Positions 2,376-49,600 of a stretch of 64,000 nucleotides of DNA are shown here, one piece after another. Position 1 is the stretch's first letter, and every line of letters begins with the position of its first letter. The translations under genes were made by a program, and so were the position numbers. This stretch comes from Escherichia coli (lineage in GTDB: Bacteria; Pseudomonadota; Gammaproteobacteria; Enterobacterales; Enterobacteriaceae): assembly GCF_016026235.1 (NCBI RefSeq), contig NZ_CP065613.1. One strand, 5' to 3'. Below the pieces are notes generated by a model. That model saw nothing but the letters and a program-made list of their open reading frames with translations. It was not told the DNA's origin and did not search any database.

Positions 2376-2672
2376 TCAGATTGCATAAAAGAAACGAACT
2401 GATGATGCGATATGAGAGAGTTCTTTCAGTCGTTGATAACTGATACCGTATTTCTTGTCAGCCTCTTCAATGCGAGCTGTGAGTAATGCAATTTCTTTAA
2501 TGGCACATACACAACAATCAAATGTTCCCAGAACGTAACCGTCATCAATAATTACCGTGACGTTTTCTTTTTGGGAAATCTGAATGAAACTATGTAATGT
2601 ATTCCCACATTTAAATTCGGCGAGAGAATCGTTAATAACATCAAGTTCAATTTCACATTCAATAATGCTCAT
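2376..2672 (-). CDS. hypothetical protein (RacC-like position), 98 aa
   Basis: ORF track 2376..2720; internal ATG at 2672 preceded by AAGGAA Shine-Dalgarno; immediately upstream of recE-like gene. Confidence 0.45.
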   Translation of the reverse strand: MSIIECEIELDVINDSLAEFKCGNTLHSFIQISQKENVTVIIDDGYVLGTFDCCVCAIKEIALLTARIEEADKKYGISYQRLKELSHIASSVRFFYAI

Positions 2673-4615: not shown

Positions 4616-4767
4616 AAGGCTTCTTCGCTATCATAATCGCCAGATTCCAGCGCTTCTTTAGCCAGCCAGATGCGTGCCCCAGTGCCTGCATTTGGCTCCA
4701 GTTGCTGGAGGCGTTTTGCATCTTCTAGGAGTAGAGCGATAACGTGTTTTAATTCTGTCTCGTTCAT
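4564..4767 (-). CDS. hypothetical small protein (67 aa)
   Basis: ATG at 4767 preceded by AGGTGAG; track start at 4776 is a GTG. Confidence 0.35.
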   Translation of the reverse strand: MNETELKHVIALLLEDAKRLQQLEPNAGTGARIWLAKEALESGDYDSEEAFYKAEGRAGYSPGLGGV

Positions 4768-4768
4768 T

Positions 4769-4924
4769 TTACTCACCTGAATGTCTTCCCAACCAACGAC
4801 GTGCGCCAGCTTCGGTTTTAAACGTTTTGCTTTTGGTATACGTCATGGCGGTGAATGTGCCGTCTTGATTGGGAAACACGCCACATACCAGAGATTCGTT
4901 GTTGCCAAGATCGATAGTATTCAT
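4769..4924 (-). CDS. small prophage protein (YdaG-like), 52 aa; alternative start at 4987
   Basis: ATG at 4924 with AGGGGA upstream; immediately downstream of repressor gene as ydaF/ydaG are in Rac. Confidence 0.4.
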   Translation of the reverse strand: MNTIDLGNNESLVCGVFPNQDGTFTAMTYTKSKTFKTEAGARRWLGRHSGE

Positions 4925-5229
4925 GTTGACCCCATTTCCCCTTAACGCCGGGTGGCGGAACGTTTTATCTACTGCGCTTTGTATCAATCAACAACTGCCG
5001 TCATGTTCGTATGCCTCAGGCTGGCTACTTAGCCCTGTTCAGTGACTGGATAACTCGAGGTATTGTCCTGCCGTTCTCTGGTGGGGCGTTGTTTGGATAT
5101 GCTTATTAAACACAATTTGTTTTCTTATGTCAACACGTAATGTGTTTTATGGTGGGTGTCATATGATGATGCTACAAAAAAGCCCGCTGATAGCGGGCTG
5201 ATTGGCATATTACTGTGATAGCAAGATCA

Positions 5230-40494: not shown

Positions 40495-41352
40495 CTAATT
40501 GGGTGATAACAGATCCTGTGTATGGGCGTTTCCCTTTGTGCGTGCGTTGATGCTGGTAACGGTAAACGTCATGATGAACACGACCGCGAATAAGACGACA
40601 ATCGTCGGAGCTGGTGCGCTGTCGATAAAAAAGGACAGCCAGACACCAGTCATTGACACTATTACCGATATGCCAGTCGCCAGTAGGAGCGCAATATGAA
40701 AGCGTTGTGTCAGGAGTACTGCAATGGCGCCAGGCGCAATGAGCAGAGAAATAGAGAGAATGATACCTACTGCTTTCAGCGTCGCCACAATGGTCAGGGA
40801 AACCATGCACAGCAGCCCATAATGCAGCCATCTCGTATGCAAACCGCTTACCTGCGCCTGTTGATAATCAAAGCTGAACAGCAAAAAATCCCGCCATTTT
40901 ACGCTAATAACAAGTGTAACCAGCCCGGCAATAATCACCGTCTGGATTATATCGCCGATGGTTATCCCGAGCATGTCGCCGAAAAGAATATGGTCAAGAT
41001 GTACGTCTGGTTTGATTGCAATATACAAGATCAGACCTGCGGCAAACATGCCAGAAAAAACAATCCCCATAACTGTATCTTGCTTGATTCGGCTGTTGTC
41101 TTTCAGGTATCCCGTCGCCACCGCGCAGAATACTCCGGCGACGAATGCCCCTGTAGCCAGAGGTAACCCCAGAATCCAGGTAAGCACGATGCCAGGAAAA
41201 ACCGCATGACTCATCGCGTCACCCATCAGTGCCCAACCTTTCAGGACCAGAAAGACCGACAGCAGCGCACAGGGTATGGAAACTACCAGTGAAATCAGCA
41301 GTGCGTGACTCATAAAGGTGAACTGCAGTGGCTCCAGTAATAATGCCATCAT
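40495..41352 (-). CDS. sitD: Mn/Fe ABC transporter permease SitD
   Basis: 285-aa polytopic membrane protein; last gene of sitABCD; 4-bp overlap with sitC. Confidence 0.85.
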   Translation of the reverse strand: MMALLLEPLQFTFMSHALLISLVVSIPCALLSVFLVLKGWALMGDAMSHAVFPGIVLTWILGLPLATGAFVAGVFCAVATGYLKDNSRIKQDTVMGIVFSGMFAAGLILYIAIKPDVHLDHILFGDMLGITIGDIIQTVIIAGLVTLVISVKWRDFLLFSFDYQQAQVSGLHTRWLHYGLLCMVSLTIVATLKAVGIILSISLLIAPGAIAVLLTQRFHIALLLATGISVIVSMTGVWLSFFIDSAPAPTIVVLFAVVFIMTFTVTSINARTKGNAHTQDLLSPN

Positions 41353-42206
41353 GAGCGATCCTCCAGCGCTTTATGCGCACGCCGACGATTTGCCAAAAGT
41401 CCATGGGTGGGCGCAAATACAAATGCTAAAAGAAACAGCAGTGTCTGCGCCACCACGATGATTCCACCTGTCGCGCCGTCCAGAAAGTAACTGACCCACG
41501 CGCCGAGGAAACTGGTTACACTGCCAATAGTTACAGCAATTATGAGCAGGCGGGGAAAACGATCGGTTAACAACCATGCTGTTGCACCGGGAGTCACCAC
41601 CAGACAGATCACCAGAAAGGCACCAACCGTTTGCAGCGCCGCAACGGTCGAAACCGACAGCAGGGTGAAGAAGAGGATTTTTAATCTGCCCGGATGTAAT
41701 CCAATAGCACGGGCGTGATTCTCGTCGAAAAAGGTCACCATAAGATCTTTCCATTTGAAAAAAAGCACGATGATCGAGAGAATGCCAATGATAGTGAGTT
41801 GCAGGATATCCGCCGGATCGATTGCCAGAATATTGCCCAGGACGATGGTCTGAATGTTCACGGATGTCGGGTTCAATGACACCATAAACAGCCCCAGGCC
41901 AAAAAAGGACGAGAAGATCAGGCCGATGATGGCATCTTCTTTTAAGCGGGTGCGTTGGTTAAGAAACAGCATGCTGCCCGCTGCCAGTCCGCCGGAAAAG
42001 AAGGCTCCCAGAGAAAACGGAAGCCCCAGCATATATGCCCCCGCAACACCCGGGACAATAGAGTGCGACAGCGCATCGCCAATCAGCGACCAGCCTTTTA
42101 GCATCAGATAGCATGACAGGAAAGCGCAGAGACCGCCGACCATTGCCGAGACCCACATCGCATTGAGCATATATTCATAGCTGAAGGGTTCCAGTAGCAC
42201 GTTCAT
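41349..42206 (-). CDS. sitC: Mn/Fe ABC transporter permease SitC
   Basis: 285-aa ABC-3 family permease. Confidence 0.85.
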
Positions 42207-43030
42207 CTTGCTTCCCTCTGCACCGCTGACGGTCGATGTGCCACAAAAGGGCGTTCATCGTCAGTAATAATGCTTTCTTCCGAGCCGTTAAGTGTGACAT
42301 GGCGCAGTACGCCGCTAAAAGCCAGCTCCAGGTTCTCGGCTGTAAAAGTGGTGTCTGTCGGCCCGCTTGCCAGGACGGTGCCTTTGACCATGACCGTATA
42401 ATCGCAAAATGTCGTGACTGAGCCGAGATTGTGCGTTGAGACAAGCATCGTTTTGCCTTCCGCGCGTAACTCCCTCAACAGGCTGATGATTTTCGCTTCG
42501 GTTTTCACATCAACGCCGGTAAAAGGTTCATCCAGCAGGATCACATCACCCTGCTGTGCAATCGCTCTCGCCAGAAAGACGCGTTTCTTTTGTCCACCGG
42601 AAAGCTCGCCGATTTGACGATGGCGAAAATCCACCATATCGACACGTTCCAGCGCATCGGTGACAATCTGACGATCCCTCTTTTTGGCTATACGCAACAT
42701 ACCCATATGCCCATAGCGGCCCATCATCACCACATCTTCCACCAGTACAGGAAATGACCAGTCAACCTCTTCTGACTGAGGGACGTAGGCAACCAGGTTT
42801 TTCTGTAGCGCCTGTCGCGTGGGAATACCCAGAACAGATATCTTTCCGCTGGTCAGACGCACAAATCCCATAATCGCTTTAAACAACGTCGATTTTCCGG
42901 AACCGTTTACCCCAACCAGAGCGGCAATAGATCCACTTGGTACTGTGAAGGATGCATCGCGCAGTGCTGTGTGCCCGTTACGCCAGGTGACAGTAACATC
43001 ATTAACGACAATGCCTGCAGATTGCATCAT
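42203..43030 (-). CDS. sitB: Mn/Fe ABC transporter ATP-binding protein SitB
   Basis: Walker [10 protein letters not shown], signature LSGGQKKR, Walker B ILLDEP. Confidence 0.85.
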
Positions 43031-43944
43031 TATTTCTCCCTTTTCCCGGCTTTAATTCCCTGTACCAGCGTACTGGTAGTAACCTTAAGAAGGTCGATAT
43101 ACGTAGGTACCGGGCCGTTTTCTGTGCTCAGGGAATCGACATAGAGCACACCGCCGTAGTGTGCGCCGGTTTCACGCGCAACCTGACGCGCTGGTTTATC
43201 GGAAATCGTACTCTCGCTAAAGACTGCCGGGATATGATTTTTCTTAACTATATCAACAACCTTACGTACCTGCTGCGGTGTTCCTTGTTGATCGGCATTA
43301 ATCGGCCACAGATAAAGCTCTTTTAGCCCCAAATCGCGTGCGAGATAAGAAAAAGCCCCTTCACTGGTGACCATCCATCGCTGATTCTCAGGGAGTTCCG
43401 TAATCTGCTTACGCAGGGGGGCAAGGGTTTGGGTAATCTTGGCTTTATAAGTATCGGCATTACGTTGGTAGGTTTGTGCATTTGCCGGATCGTATTTTAT
43501 CAACGCATCACGAATATTATCGACGTAAATCAGAGCATTATCTGGCGACATCCATGCATGGGGATTAGGTTTGCCCTCATAGGGTCCTTCGGTGATCCCT
43601 ACTGGCGTCACACCCGAAGAGACAATTACTTCTGGAACCCCATTGAGATGCTGGTAAAAGCGTTGGAACCACAATTCCAGATTCATACCATTGGCGAGAA
43701 TCAGTTGTGCCCCCTGCGCACGTTTAATATCGCCAGGGGTAGGCTGATACTCATGAATTTCTGCACCAGGCTTGGTTATGGATGAGACTTCTGCAGCATC
43801 TCCAGCCACGTTTTTGGCCATATCCGCGATGATGGTAAATGTTGTAATGACCTTGAATTTTTCAGTTGCACTTGCCTGAAATGCGATCGAGCAGGTGAGG
43901 GCGAGGCACCCCAAGAGCATGGTTACTTTTTTTATTGAGTGCAT
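43030..43944 (-). CDS. sitA: Periplasmic Mn/Fe-binding protein SitA
   Basis: 304 aa, signal peptide, cluster A-I substrate-binding family. Confidence 0.85.
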
Positions 43945-43976
43945 AATTTAGTACCTATAGTGAGCAAAATTAGAAC

Positions 43977-43998
43977 AAACATAGCAACGGCTATGTTT
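43977..43998. promoter_or_regulatory. MntR box upstream of sitA
   Basis: Perfect inverted repeat AAACATAGC-AACG-GCTATGTTT, 33-54 bp upstream of the sitA start codon. Confidence 0.6.
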
Positions 43999-44020
43999 TA
44001 TAGCATAACCTATACAAAAT

Positions 44021-44039
44021 GAAAATAATTATCATTAAC
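44021..44039. promoter_or_regulatory. Fur box upstream of sitA
   Basis: GAAAATAATTATCATTAAC matches Fur consensus GATAATGATAATCATTATC at 15 of 19 positions. Confidence 0.5.
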
Positions 44040-44497
44040 AGCTTTGAGGCCTAAAACAGGGATTAGGTTGTTTCCTGCTGGCGACATGATATTGAGGAAA
44101 AAAGTAGAGCAGCTATTAGGCTTTGAAATGACTTTATGAGGAAAATTGTTGATGGCAAAAATGGGGCAAAACGCTGTAGAAGGGGCAAAAAAGGGGCAAA
44201 AAAAGAGTGGGTTATCGTAGCTTATTGTTGTCGCTGATAATGTTTAACATATTGAAAAATAAATAAAATACTTATGAGTCAGATAGTTGTGATTTTTGCC
44301 CTTACTTGTTCAGATTGTATTGTTCTTTCTTGCTAATTTCTTGATTTTGCGACATTTAAAAGCGACTCAATTCGTTATATGGCATCAGAAGAGTATGCGT
44401 CATGCCGGAACGCCCAGCATAAGAAATCTGATATAAAAACTGTGGCGTGTATGGTACGGATTAGAGGGGAAAATGTCAGCACATTTGCGAAATGAAT

Positions 44498-44524
44498 CAA
44501 AAAGCCCGCAGCAATGTGCGGGCG
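44498..44524 (-). terminator. Rho-independent terminator of uspF
   Basis: Minus-strand GCCCGCA-CATTGCT-GCGGGC followed by TTTTT. Confidence 0.5.
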
Positions 44525-44530
44525 TTAGTG

Positions 44531-45046
<516 letters not shown>

Positions 45047-45075
45047 TTAGATCAAAGGAGGAAGAATAAGCAGAA

Positions 45076-45102
45076 AAAGCCCGCCATAACAGCGGGCAGG
45101 AG
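45076..45102 (-). terminator. Rho-independent terminator of ompN
   Basis: Minus-strand GCCCGC-TGTTATG-GCGGGC followed by TTTTT. Confidence 0.5.
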
Positions 45103-45105
45103 GAT

Positions 45106-46239
45106 TTAGAACTGATAAACCAGACCTAAAGCGACAATATCATCGGTAGAGATGCCGTTGGCAGCGTAGAAACTGTCATCTTCATCCAACAGGTTGATTT
45201 TATAGTCAACATAAGTGGACATGTTTTTATTGAAATAGTAAGTCGCGCCAACATCGGCGTATTTAACCAGATCTTTATCATCAACACCTGCCGGGTTGTC
45301 TGCACCACCGGCAGCGTGCAGGTCACGGCCTTTAGACATCAGGAAAGAGACTGCCGGACGCAGACCAAAATCAAACTGGTACTGTGCAGTGACTTCAAAG
45401 TTCTGGGTTTTGTTTGCAACAGCATAATCGCTGTCGCCAAACGGGGTCATATTACGCGTTTCTGAATACATGGTTGCCAAGTAAATATTGTTAGCATCGT
45501 ATTTTAGCCCAGCAGTCCACGCGTCTGCTTTATCACCACCCGCCGCAGTATGGTTAACCTGGTCATTGGTGCGGTCAGAAGAGGTGTATGCCGCACCAGC
45601 GCTAAAGCCCATGCCTAAATCATATGTTGTGGAAAGACCCCAGCCGTCACCGTTTTCATGGCGAACATCACGTCCGTTGTTGGTGCCTTCCTGACCATTA
45701 CTGGCACCTTCGTTGTTACCTTGATACTGCACCGCGAAGTTCAGACCATTTACCAGACCGAAGAAATCAGTATTACGATAAGTCGCGACGCCATTGGCAC
45801 GACCAGTCATAAAGTTGTCTGCATTGGTATAAGAGTCACCGCCAAATTCAGGCAGCATATCGGTCCAGCCTTCGATGTCGTACATTACGCCATAATTACG
45901 TCCGTAATCGAAAGAACCGTAATCTGAAAATTTCAGTCCGGCAAATGCCAGACGGGTCCATGACTGGTTTTTTGAAGATTCAGTGTTGTTTGCCTGAATA
46001 TTGTATTCCCATTGACCGTAGCCAGTAAGTTGATCGTTAATTTGGGTTTCGCCTTTAAAACCCAGACGCGCATAGCTCTGGTCGCCATCTTTCGCTGAAT
46101 TATCAGAAAAATAATGCAGGCCATCAACTTTGCCATACAGATCTAATTTGTTGCCGTCTTTATTATAAACTTCGGCTGCATGTGCAGCACCTGCGCCGAG
46201 CAGGGCAGGAATTAAAAGTGCCAGTACTTTGCTTTTCAT
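45106..46239 (-). CDS. ompN: Outer membrane porin OmpN
   Basis: 377-aa OmpC/F-family porin with signal peptide, C-terminal LVYQF. Confidence 0.85.
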
Positions 46240-46548
46240 TGAATAAATCCTTTAGTTATTTTATTTGCCTTTTATCCCCATTTCGGGGAGTGAAAACATC
46301 CTAAAGGAGAAGTTCAGTTAGCCGATAAATATCATTTGTTACGCCTTAAGTAAAACCTTAATCAAAAAATTCCTCTGAAATGATAATAAGTCTGGTGAAT
46401 GTATCGAAGATAATACATACAAAATAAAAATTATACTTTTAATTTTCTATACGTTATTCTGCGCGGGTTATATGCCTTTATTGTCACAGATTTTATTTTC
46501 TGTTGGGCCATTGCATTGCCACTGATTTTCCAACATATAAAAAGACAA

Positions 46549-46580
46549 GCCCGAACAGTCGTCTGGGCTTTTTTTTAGAA
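46549..46580. terminator. Bidirectional hairpin terminator between ydbK and ompN
   Basis: AAGCCC...GGGCTT hairpin flanked by A-run and T-run. Confidence 0.45.
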
Positions 46581-46604
46581 TTGGATAATCCTTATCCAGA
46601 GCAT

Positions 46605-49600
46605 TTAATCGGTGTTGCTTTTTTCCGCTTTTCCGGCCATTTGTGCCAGGAAGTCATAGCGTTTTTGCAAATCAGCTGCAGCATCTTTCCATAACTGTTC
46701 TGCCACTTCTGGCTGCTGAGAATTCAGACGACGGAAACGTTGCTCGTGAAGTAACGTTTCTTCCAGTGCTTCTGACGGCGGGCGTGAATCCAGCGCCAGC
46801 GGCAGTTTGCCTTCATCGGCACGACGCGGATCGAAGCGATATAGCGGCCAGAAGCCGGTAGCTGTGAGTTGGCGCATCTGGTCATGGCTGAGTGCCAGAT
46901 CGTAACCATGCTCTTCACACGGGCTATAAGCAATGATCAGCGATGGTCCCGGATACGCTTCCGCTTCCTGAATCGCTTTCACCGTCTGGTTCAGTTGCGC
47001 GCCGAGAGAAATCTGCGCCACATAAACATGACCGTACATCATCATACTGACGCCAAGATCTTTACGCGCTTTACGTTTGCCGTGCTCGCCAAATTTAGTT
47101 ACTGCACCCAGCGGTGTCGCTTTCGACGCCTGACCACCGGTGTTGGAATAGCATTGCGTATCCAGCACCAGAATGTTGACGTTTTCCGTCAAACTCAATA
47201 CATGATCCAGACCGCCAAAGCCGATATCGTAAGCCCAGCCGTCGCCACCAATCAGCCAGATTGATTTTTCTACCAGTGCATCTGCGTCACGCAGCAGTTC
47301 ATGTGCTTCGGCAACATCGTTGAGTTGCTGGCGTAAAGCTGCAACCTGTTCACGACGAACCTCTGGCGTGGCGTCTGATTTCAACGCAGTCAGTAATTCC
47401 GCCGGGATTTTATCGGCAAATTGATCCAGCAGACGCAGCACGCGGACACGGTGTTGATCGACCGTCAGGCGGAAACCAAGGCCAAATTCGGCATTATCTT
47501 CAAATAGAGAGTTCGCCCATGCCGGCCCACGACCGTTGGCATCGGTGGTATACGGTGTAGAGGGCAGGTTACCGCCATAAATTGAAGAACAGCCGGTGGC
47601 GTTAGCGATCAACATCCGGTCGCCATAGAGCTGAGTCAGCAATTTAATATACGGCGTCTCGCCACAACCGGAGCAAGCACCGGAATATTCAAACAGCGGT
47701 GTAATCAGCTGCGATGTACGAATATCAATACGTTCCAGTTTGCTACGGTCGATTTCTGGCAGGTTGAGGAAGAAATCGTAATTGATTTTCTCTTCTTCGA
47801 CATGTTCCAGGCGCGACATCATATTGATGGCTTTAATCTCTGGATTCTGACGGTCTTTCGCCGGGCAAACTTCGACGCACAGGTTACAACCGGTGCAATC
47901 TTCCGGAGCCACCTGCAAGACATATTTCTGCCCGCGCATATCACGCGATTTCACATCCAGCGAATGCAGGCTGGCAGGGGCGTTTTCCATCGCTTCAGGC
48001 GGTACCACTTTTGCGCGAATAGCTGAGTGTGGGCAAGCGGCGACGCAGTGGTTACATTGGGTACAGAGTTCCTCTTTCCAGATGGGGATCTCTTCGGCGA
48101 TATTGCGTTTTTCCCAGCGAGTGGTGCCCATCGGCCAGGTGCCGTCTGGCGGCAGCGCCGAAACGGGGAGGGCATCACCAAGCCCGGCGAGCATCGCAGC
48201 GGTTACGGTTTTCACGAAATCAGGGGCGGCATCGGAAACCACTGGCGGTCGATTGGCGCTGTGCGGATTTACCGGTTGCAACGGAACTTCTTCTACGGAT
48301 TCACGCGCCAGCGCCAGAGCCTGCCAGTTGCGTTCCACCAGATCCTGACCTTTGCTGCTGTAACTTTTGGCAATCGCACCCTGCAATTCTGCGAGGGCGC
48401 TATCGCCAGGCAGAATTTGTGTCAGATGGAAAAAAGCCATCTGCATGACGGTATTAATACGGGCCGCCAGGCCACATTCGCGGGCGATTTTCGCCGCGTT
48501 AATCACATAGAAGCGCGCTTTTTTCTGATTTAGCACGGCCTGAACTTCCTGCGGCAAGCGCGACCACACTTCATCTGCGCTGTACGGCGTGTTGAGCAGG
48601 AAAATGCCGCCAGGTTTTAAACGCTCAGCCATCTGATATTTATCGATAAACTGCAACTGGTGGCAGCCAACAAAATCAGCCTGGGAAATGAGATAAGCGG
48701 AACGAATCGGCTGTTCGCTCACGCGAAGGTGAGAAACCGTCAGGCCGCCCGCCTTTTTGGAGTCGTAAACAAAATAGCCCTGTGCGTACCACGGCGTGGA
48801 ATTACCGATAATCTTGATATTGTTTTTGGTCGCGGAAACGCTGCCATCACTACCAAGGCCATAAAACAAGGCTTCCAGTTTCGCCGAGTTTGGCAGGGTG
48901 TTTTCCGGCAACGGCAGTGACAGATTGGTCACATCATCGTAAATACCAACCGTAAAGCGCGCTTTCGGTTTAGCCGCGTTGAGCTCGGCAAATACCGCCA
49001 GTACACAGTCCGGGCCAAATTCTTTGGATGAAAGACCATAGCGCCCACCAATGATACGGGGCAGAGTTTCGCGCTCGCCATTATTAAAGGCTTCTGCCAG
49101 TGCGGTCATTACATCCAGATAGAGCGGTTCTGCCTGGGCACTGGGTTCTTTGGTTCTGTCCAGTACCGCCACGCTGCGTACGGATCCCGGCAGAGCTTGC
49201 AGCAAGTGTTTGGCGGAGAAGGGACGGTACAGGCGAACTTTCAGCACGCCAACTTTTTCGCCACGGGTTAGCAATTCATCAACCACTTCTTCACAGGTGC
49301 CAATGGCAGAGCCCATCAGGATAATCACCCGTTCCGCTTGCGGATGCCCGTAATATTCAAACGGCTGATACTGACGACCTGTCGCGGCAGAGAAATCATT
49401 CATCGCCTGTTCAACATGGTCATAGACCGCGTTGTACCATGGGTTGGTGGCTTCGCGAGACTGGAAATAAGTGTCAGGATTCGCGGACGTACCGCGGATC
49501 ACCGGATGTTCCGGGTTGAGTGCCCGGGCGCGATGAGCATCAATTTCGGCCTGCGGCATGAGATCAAGAATCGTGTCATCGGCCAGCGGGACAATTTTGT

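Follow-up and report, generated by a model that had tools for sequence, protein, structure and literature searches.

Putative integrase arm-type sites in the attR of a Rac-type, sit-carrying prophage of Escherichia coli

The attP of phage lambda, which spans about −152 to +82, and the attachment sites of the cryptic prophage Rac of Escherichia coli K-12 are among the closest described systems for the locus presented here. For Rac, the searchable literature defines the core, the binding of XisR to an attR fragment and an IHF peak, and arm sites are unmentioned; in the study that reported XisR binding, the words 'arm', 'repeat' and 'binding site' occur 0 times each (PMC4632033). A literature search for the motif described below or for Rac arm sites, which covered papers other than subscription-only ones, returned only a prediction for phage phiEf11 and an attR string of prophage phiKW2. 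In the Enterococcus phage phiEf11, direct repeats AAAGGGGCAAA / AAAGGGGCA in the attP arms were predicted to be bound by the integrase (PMC12540744), and the attR of the Lactococcus prophage phiKW2 was listed as aaaggggcaaaaaaggggcata (PMC3757294). Among arm-binding tyrosine recombinases, PF12167 defines the IntBPP-1 subgroup, which is described as close to IntTn916 and as consisting of putative integrases only (PMC8138268). Here, we analysed a stretch of E. coli DNA of 64,000 nucleotides (hereafter, the window), in which a conspicuous repeat lies between the sit operon and uspF. We interpret the repeats, with a probability of ca. 0.8, as putative arm-type binding sites in the P arm of a Rac-type attP, which here takes the form of attR.

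The repeats at the right end of a Rac-type prophage

The sequence of 44150-44215 reads TGATGGCAAAAATGGGGCAAAACGCTGTAGAAGGGGCAAAAAAGGGGCAAAAAAAGAGTGGGTTAT. The first-pass annotation, made from the sequence of the window, had claimed a triple repeat in this region, and direct reading bore this out, with three exact copies of GGGGCAAAA on the + strand (Table 1, sites 2 to 4). It had not seen a degenerate fourth copy, ATGGCAAAA, with which the array shows a spacing of 11/19/11 bp, and had also missed an inverted GGGCAAAAA near the att core. On both strands of the whole window, five copies of GGGGCAAAA were observed as against 1.02 expected from 100 dinucleotide-preserving shuffles, none of which (0/100) reached five, and three of the five copies are packed into 39 bp. 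The A+T content of 44136-44305 is 65% compared to 49% for the window, and tracts of A4-A7 recur at 11/19/11 bp across the array.

Table 1. Positions of attR features and neighbouring elements in the window
Feature	Position	Strand	Remarks
Arm-type site 1 (putative), degenerate ATGGCAAAA	44152..44160	+	Outermost P-arm element; K-12 Rac homology begins here
Arm-type site 2 (putative), GGGGCAAAA	44163..44171	+	TGGGGCAAA nearly invariant in 17 diverged P arms
Arm-type site 3 (putative), GGGGCAAAA	44182..44190	+	AGGGGCAAA invariant in 17 diverged P arms
Arm-type site 4 (putative), GGGGCAAAA	44193..44201	+	GGGCA(C/T) in PHB10-type relatives
attR P arm, phage-derived, between sit cargo and att core	44152..44305		154 bp; 97% identical to K-12 Rac right end
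Two IHF-consensus-like sites	44245-44257, 44262-44274	−, +	Pattern scan; one mismatch each to WATCAANNNNTTR
Inverted GGGCAAAAA	44293..44301	−	Five bases from core
26-bp Rac att core TTGTTCAGATTGTATTGTTCTTTCTT	44306..44331		One mismatch to K-12 core
ttcC, native 5' end of ttcA remaining at attR	44306..44355	−	50 nt; direct reading
Perfect IHF consensus AATCAAGAAATTA	44334..44346	−	Bacterial side
Mini-ORF	44146..44220	+	24 aa from TTG, 22 aa from ATG 44152
sitDCBA, prophage cargo operon	40495..43944	−	ORFs; annotation of near-identical loci

A 581-bp intergenic query was compared with 5,426 complete E. coli genomes, and three homology blocks emerged. The block 43950-44135 travels with sit, the block from ca. 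44146/44153 to 44530 matches K-12 and other sit-less strains, and the block 44306-44530 matches every strain, being annotated as ttcA when the prophage is absent. In the alignment to K-12, near-identity starts at 44152 with none to the left of it, and in MG1655 the counterpart is the Rac right end, with the pseudogene ttcC and then uspF beyond it. Unoccupied ttcA loci lack the DNA of the putative arm sites (44152-44201), whereas the right end of Rac has it. The published 26-bp Rac core (TTGTTCAGGTTGTATTGTTCTTTCTT), which is also annotated in phage Rac-SA53, was located with one mismatch at a distance of 105 bp from site 4, and ttcC comes next. The − strand of this ttcC fragment, which is equivalent to the K-12 pseudogene ttcC (b4638), encodes MSQNQEISKKEQYNLNK, the native TtcA N-terminus. 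Since K-12 Rac homology runs from 44152 and the core and the TtcA N-terminus lie at 44306, the attR arm of phage origin spans 44152-44305, with the repeats filling its outer 50 bp. The Rac homology, the core and the ttcC fragment together constitute the att remnant that the first-pass annotation had suspected in this region. Position 9 of the core is G in attL and A in attB and attR, the attL being from a genome with an identical attR arm; strand exchange would probably take place at or left of 44306-44313.

Since positions 1-40300 encode lambdoid phage functions (a RecE-like exonuclease, a replication protein, terminase, protease, tape measure, J and side tail fibres), the window holds most of a prophage, the right end of which is ordered as tail fibres, sitDCBA, P arm and core. 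In strain 190, whose attR arm is 100% identical, xisR-intR-ttcA is located about 49 kb away. The attachment site is most likely the attR of a lambdoid Rac-type prophage of ca. 49 kb in the 5' end of ttcA, with sitABCD as cargo beside att, and attL and intR fall outside the window. A viral contig of 50.5 kb (L139) contains, contiguously, sitA, a P arm with the window-type junction, the core, a P' arm and intR; it shows a sit-carrying phage like that of the window in its attP form. The P arm was found once per genome in 1049 of the 5426 complete E. coli genomes.

The sit promoter region (43945-44151) directly adjoins site 1, and the array is ca. 210 bp upstream of sitA in an AT-rich region of simple composition. 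This composition and distance would fit either a functionless low-complexity repeat that arose by chance or slippage, or a regulatory element of the sitA promoter. However, the excess of copies in the window and the clustering of three of them within 39 bp count against these readings, and the repeat positions are conserved across diverged phages. K-12 has identical repeats but no sit operon, and the elements that we take to regulate sitA, an MntR-type palindrome and a Fur-like box, sit further left (43976-44035). A sitA regulatory element was therefore rejected on the grounds that the K-12 repeats occur without sit, and both versions of this explanation, already refuted by the comparative data, retain practically no probability. 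The right-hand neighbours of the repeats are uspF, ompN, MicC and nifJ/ydbK, and a search of Rfam over 43800-46700 gave no RNA match apart from MicC.

Conservation of the P arm and the opposite arm

Seventeen diverged P arms, all targeting ttcA, were aligned, and the mean information content per column was determined. It was 0.55 bits upstream of site 1, 1.51 bits in site 1, 1.89 bits in site 2, 0.96 bits in the 10-bp spacer, 1.95 bits in site 3, 1.34 bits in site 4 and 1.13 bits in the rest of the P arm, while the att core, at 1.67 bits, ranked below sites 2 and 3. Sites 1 and 4 are degenerate. Site 1 reads GGGGCA in most relatives, GTGGCA in K-12 and GTAGCA in Rac-SA53; site 4 is placed 11 bp from site 3 in all relatives but one, which has a 10-bp deletion, and is missing in one relative. 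All four P-arm sites share one orientation (lambda has two P-arm sites). The similarity among the P arms stops exactly at the outer edge of site 1, beyond which the cargo varies (sit here and ynaE/ynaM in K-12), and a mosaic junction at this edge is what would be expected for a functional attP boundary. As for the composition of the sites, the first G of site 2 and the conserved AT before it make up the second in-frame ATG (44161) of the ORF in Table 1, and ATGGGGCA is the site consensus in Stx-type phages.

Between the arm sites and the core lie both IHF-like sites (44245-44274). Their TAAC....TTGA block is conserved in the P-arm alignment and forms a perfect consensus in phage PHB10, and IHF probably binds at these positions. 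In K-12, a GeF-seq peak of IHF was reported at the attL equivalent of AATCAAGAAATTA, with no peak at the ttcC copy (PMC8407004). The inverted GGGCAAAAA is conserved in Rac-type arms, and PHB10-type arms have TGGCAAAATC on the other strand instead; this element may be part of a core-type (C) site and not an arm site.

The first-pass annotation had also proposed a mini-ORF of 22 codons starting at ATG 44152. As an ORF it is present, with a TTG start and 24 aa (MLMAKMGQNAVEGAKKGQKKSGLS), and translation of the repeat stretch into a small protein of 22-24 codons, MAKMGQNAVEGAKKGQKKSGLS, would be in line with a GAGG 10 nt ahead of ATG 44152 and with the similar frame kept in close Rac-type arms (..AKMGQ..KGAK.GQKKSGLS). 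Besides, PGAP calls a 57-aa hypothetical protein over the repeats in B strains (BL21), but in a different frame. However, ATG 44152 is nothing other than the first three bases of the degenerate site 1, and its equivalents are GTG in K-12, GTA in Rac-SA53 and GGG in most other aligned relatives, the ORF start among relatives being ATG, GTG, TTG or none. K-12 lacks the SD-like GAGG, which lies to the sit side of the mosaic junction, and a scan showed no promoter-like site on the + strand upstream of the ORF. In PHB10-type arms, the frame shifts between the repeats or there is no ORF. In Rac-type relatives, the inter-repeat peptide varies (NAVEG, NAAKG, SAAKG, KVAKG, NTAKG) through non-synonymous codon changes, whereas the DNA motif does not change. 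As the repeat unit is free of stop codons, none of the three + frames is interrupted across the repeats, and RefSeq lists nothing at the repeats in K-12 MG1655, though the neighbouring small protein YnaM is listed. With frame, start and peptide all unconserved, gene status found no support, and a translated small protein is extremely unlikely; we judge the ORF to be a by-product of stop-free repeats. In essence, the stretch aligns to a known feature with no translation signal, and what stands of the first-pass reading is the att remnant and not the mini-ORF.

The motif was found in the opposite arm as well. The 51 bp between the ttcA start codon and the intR stop in K-12 attL contain ATGGGGCAAATTGGGGGCAAAC, which comprises two motif copies, GGGGCAAAT and GGGGCAAAC, 11 bp apart and in the strand orientation of the attR copies. 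When both ends of the prophage were joined, an attP of ca. 245 bp resulted, in which, relative to the core centre, four sites occupy about −165 to −120 and two about +60 to +80. This layout, four copies in P and two in P', was seen in K-12, in PHB10 and in contiguous Rac-type attP contigs. In PHB10 (MK524177), a contiguous attP lies between an SOS-response peptidase gene and int; its P arm carries AGGGGCAAA at 2348, 2360 and 2379 and GGGCAC at 2390, followed by the core near 2505 and GGGGCA at 2576 and 2587 right before the int stop, so that the 4+2 layout is kept though the surrounding arm sequence has diverged from Rac.

Pattern scans of IMG/VR yielded many further P arms. In attP/attL variants whose integrases are 61-100% identical to IntR, GGGGCA starts 49 nt past the matched core segment, and the remainder of the P' arm differs among them. 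All contiguous variants examined have at least one GGGGCA except L180, which is without an exact GGGCA, and the variants other than Rac-type and PHB10 attP have one to three P' copies. The second P' copy at 11-bp spacing is kept in Rac-type and PHB10 arms and degenerate in some others. The scanned bacterial B' flanks contained no GGGCA. A search by integrase alignment gave 80 loci, nearly all ending at the int stop (IMG/VR prophage boundaries), and the P' pair was carried by 5/5 of the loci with DNA downstream of int.

Integrase, excisionase and the likely role of the repeats

IntR has an N-terminal PF12167 domain (Arm-DNA-bind_2; residues 5-69, E = 2e-26), as does the PHB10 integrase, and in both it is followed by SAM-like and catalytic domains. 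Because of PF12167, the two enzymes can be placed in the IntBPP-1 subgroup (PMC8138268). In a PDB sequence search, IntR was matched only from residue 150 to the C-terminus, with Tn1549 Int as the closest entry, and no solved relative of the arm domain was found. Phages with other cores and integrases 35-44% identical to IntR (mEp460, phi330, phi315, SaltyDalty and Aeromonas pAEv1818, with PF12167 confirmed for mEp460 and phi330 only) have GGGGCA pairs or triplets in both arms ca. 240 bp apart. mEp460 has TGGGGCATATATGGGACA in one arm and ATGGGGCATGGTTGGGGCAAAC at the int 3' end, and the phi330 arms have ATGGGGCATCAATGGGGCATGTATGGGACAC and ATGGGGCATACATGGGACAC; in phi315, SaltyDalty and pAEv1818, the pairs or triplets are about 235-245 bp apart. 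At 29-32% integrase identity, the layout of two pairs is kept and the motifs differ (TGGGAACA in phiCTX, TGTACCAA in MD8 and TGCTGA in MR15). GGGGCA is thus retained down to 35% identity, with other paired motifs at 29-32%. The motif tracks the integrase lineage and not the host or the core, as would be expected of integrase arm sites and would not be expected of host-factor sites or a peptide.

The comparison also bears on whether DNA shape is the conserved feature, with phased A-tracts bending the arm or serving Fis or IHF and the G-rich part being incidental. The A4-A7 tracts at 11/19/11 bp and the AT-richness of the arm are in keeping with this, and IHF acts at Rac attL (PMC8407004). However, the invariant part is GGGGCA, after which relatives swap the A-run for AT, TA, CC or GC, and the motif varies with the integrase lineage within comparable hosts, which a site for a host factor should not do. 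Although selection for curvature could lie behind part of the conservation, shape as the whole explanation is very unlikely.

The usual targets of recombination directionality factors are phased direct repeats of the P arm, and the repeats might accordingly be sites for the excisionase XisR (YdaQ; PF06806 in Pfam), comparable to the tandem X1/X1.5/X2 of the lambda P arm. In an EMSA, XisR shifted a 294-bp AttR probe and left a 291-bp AttM probe unshifted (Liu et al. 2015; PMC4632033). The shifted AttR fragment includes the repeats. By primer mapping, however, AttM corresponds to 4669-4959 of the K-12 locus (L004); the four sites lie inside it (4806-4855), and it stops at the core boundary. The EMSA thus implies that XisR requires sequence at the core or to the right of it. 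Since AttM holds all four sites and yet was unshifted, the repeats are not sufficient as XisR sites, an exclusion that depends on a single published EMSA with His-tagged protein. The motif is also present in the P' arm beside int, where Xis sites are unexpected, and is common to phages with related integrases across different cores. Taken together, a role as XisR sites is unlikely.

It is close to certain that the repeats are part of the att recombination module. The evidence for putative arm-type sites comes from where the repeats lie within the phage arm, from their presence in both arms and their position-specific conservation, from the arm domain of the integrase and from a motif linked to integrase lineage. 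By analogy with lambda, IntR would be the binding protein and the sites would be required for recombination. IntR is thus pictured as a heterobivalent tyrosine recombinase whose N-terminal domain would grip (A/T)GGGGCA(A/T) at the four P-arm sites and at the two P'-arm sites abutting the int stop, while its C-terminal domains would hold the core. IHF would bend the AT-rich DNA between arm and core and thereby allow a single integrase to bridge both. The resulting intasome would give direction to the reaction, with integration between attP and attB and excision between attL and attR with XisR. Arm-type sites are a textbook kind of element, and no concept is changed by this assignment.

A wider proposition, which we regard as possible but rather doubtful, is that (A/T)GGGGCA(A/T) in direct pairs of 11 bp, ca. 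240 bp apart around the core, is an arm-site code shared by all Arm-DNA-bind_2 (IntBPP-1) integrases of enterobacterial and Aeromonas phages (Rac, Stx-phage and mEp460 types), irrespective of the core, and that many Firmicutes phage integrases without a recognisable homologous arm domain use this motif too. Seven Firmicutes-type integrases from IMG/VR that adjoin tandem GGGGCAAA pairs are 21-28% identical to IntR, and Pfam recognised no arm domain in these seven, a set separate from the integrases of phiEf11 and phiKW2 themselves. If the code were indeed shared, a single motif would suffice to predict attP arms and prophage ends, phages with different targets could swap arms as modules, and arm recognition in the Firmicutes phages would be a matter of either deep homology or convergence.

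The assignment gives a likely function to a conspicuous repeat that is present once per genome in about one-fifth of complete E. coli genomes, K-12 included, and that annotation pipelines sometimes mistake for a hypothetical protein. It also maps the putative cis-elements of Rac attachment, namely four sites in the P arm, two in the P' arm, the IHF-like sites and the approximate point of exchange, and this map is directly usable in Rac excision experiments. The sit iron/manganese transporter is commonly viewed as a virulence factor, and here it travels as cargo set right against what is probably the functional edge of a phage attP.

Comparison with known systems

The conjugative transposons Tn916 and Tn1549 follow the same heterobivalent logic, and IntBPP-1 (PF12167) is described as a close relative of IntTn916 (PMC8138268). 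Among solved structures, Tn1549 Int comes nearest to IntR in sequence, from residue 150 onward only. Unlike the Rac type, these elements have another arm sequence (DR2) and flexible targets. phiEf11 and phiKW2 have a motif practically identical to that of Rac, arranged as direct repeats in each arm beside a tyrosine integrase gene, but have Firmicutes hosts; their sites are also predictions only.

As with P1, P2 and P'1-P'3 of lambda, to which the N-terminal domain of lambda Int binds, the short repeated sites of the Rac-type attP lie in both arms outside the core at about one helical turn from each other. The Rac-type attP spans ca. 245 bp (about −165 to +80). In both systems, the P' sites abut the int 3' end, IHF-consensus sites are located between the arm sites and the core, and the excisionase gene adjoins int. 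Unlike lambda, the Rac type has the motif (A/T)GGGGCA(A/T) as against C/AAGTCACTAT, four P and two P' putative sites as against two and three, all six of them on the same strand, and PF12167 in IntR as against PF09003 as the arm-binding domain. Its core lies within the 5' end of a protein gene (ttcA), and its arm sites are predicted.

The attL and attR of K-12 Rac share with the present locus the 26-bp core, the ttcA/ttcC arrangement and a P arm 97% identical from 44152 onward; unlike in K-12, the arm in the window is joined to sit cargo and not to ynaE/ynaM.

The sit cargo, the attP form of the phage and annotation across the repeats

The outermost putative IntR arm site of the P arm directly adjoins the sit promoter region in the window, with no gap between them. 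In a single 50.5-kb viral contig of IMG/VR, sitA, the P arm, the core, the P' arm and intR are contiguous, and this arrangement is the attP form of a sit-carrying phage. Upstream of sitA, a perfect palindrome and an AT-rich box were found; by consensus they look like candidate operator sites for MntR and Fur in the sit promoter.

Over the repeats, PGAP calls a 57-aa hypothetical protein, WP_001157925.1, in B strains, and its frame differs from that of the 22-codon mini-ORF which the first-pass annotation had suggested there. The PGAP call is probably an artefact that arises from the lack of stop codons in the repeats.

Coordinates of features in the window and in compared loci
Feature	Sequence	Locus and position	Strand	Remark
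sitDCBA and promoter region		window 40495-44151		phage cargo, between side tail-fibre genes and attP
AT-rich box	GAAAATAATTATCATTAAC	region window 43976-44035
Perfect palindrome	AAACATAGC-N4-GCTATGTTT	window 43977-43998		flagged terminator-like in scan
EMSA probes (primer mapping)		K-12 attR (L004) 4669-5083; window about 44015-44429
WP_001157925.1		BL21-AI (L197) 1441-1614; window about 44090-44265
Core-side element, Rac-type	GGGCAAAAATC-like	window 44293-44301	-	five bases off core
Core-side element, PHB10-type	TGGCAAAATC	PHB10 (L009) about 2484-2494	+	equivalent place
attR core	TTGTTCAGATTGTATTGTTCTTTCTT	window 44306-44331
attL core	TTGTTCAGGTTGTATATCTCTTTCTT	L281 15530-15570		genome with identical attR arm
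MicC sRNA		window 46464-46584	+	Rfam RF00121, 121 bits; between ompN and nifJ/ydbK, as in K-12
New TtcA N-terminus		K-12 attL (L003) 4950-5003; L281 15469-15520
sitA to intR, contiguous		viral contig L139 4348-6955
Motif in both arms	(A/T)GGGGCA(A/T)	L199 1558-1795; L200 1517-1774; L282-L284
Changed motifs, in order	TGGGAACA; TGCTGA(A/G)A; TGTACCAA	phiCTX (L285); MR15 (L286); MD8 (L287)		29-32% identity

Core, XisR EMSA and ttcA leader

The attL core was compared with the attR core of the window, and position 9 was found to be A in unoccupied attB. Taken together, these sequence comparisons predict that the strands are exchanged no further right than the first 8 bp of the "26-bp core". The element beside the core lies on opposite strands in Rac-type and PHB10-type arms, and the Rac-type element may be part of a core-type site.

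In the EMSA of Liu et al. 2015 (PMC4632033), XisR was positive with the AttR probe and negative with AttM. This result, along with the location of the probes by primer mapping, implies that the XisR determinant is at the core boundary or right of it, which is unusual for an excisionase.

At attL, the new N-terminus of TtcA is supplied by the phage, MQENQQIT replacing MSQNQEIS, and the intR stop and the ttcA start are just 51 bp apart. Since both putative P' arm sites lie in the ttcA leader there, as does the IHF site, one idea is that ttcA expression might be affected by the occupancy of integrase or IHF.

Arm motifs beside other integrases

In low-GC (Firmicutes-type) phages of IMG/VR (L010-L129; e.g. 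L118, L052, L033 and L071), tandem GGGGCAAA-N3-4-GGGGCAAA was common beside the tyrosine integrase gene, in a scan for which we estimated roughly 80 chance matches. Among the matches listed, the tandem followed the int stop by no more than 300 bp in 39 of the 42 instances in loci with a recognisable integrase C-terminus, and the distances formed two clusters, one near 4-9 bp and the other near 220 bp. The adjacent integrases share only 21-28% identity with IntR, and Pfam showed no arm domain in the seven scanned.

Pairs or triplets of (A/T)GGGGCA(A/T), about 240 bp apart, were present in both arms of mEp460, phi330, phi315, SaltyDalty and Aeromonas pAEv1818, whose integrases are related to IntR and whose cores are different. 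Among these five, mEp460 and phi330 are the two for which PF12167 (Arm-DNA-bind_2) was confirmed, and the P' pair of the group overlaps the last int codons. For integrases at 29-32% identity (phiCTX, MR15 and MD8), an 11-bp-spaced pair per arm is kept downstream of int, with the motif changed.
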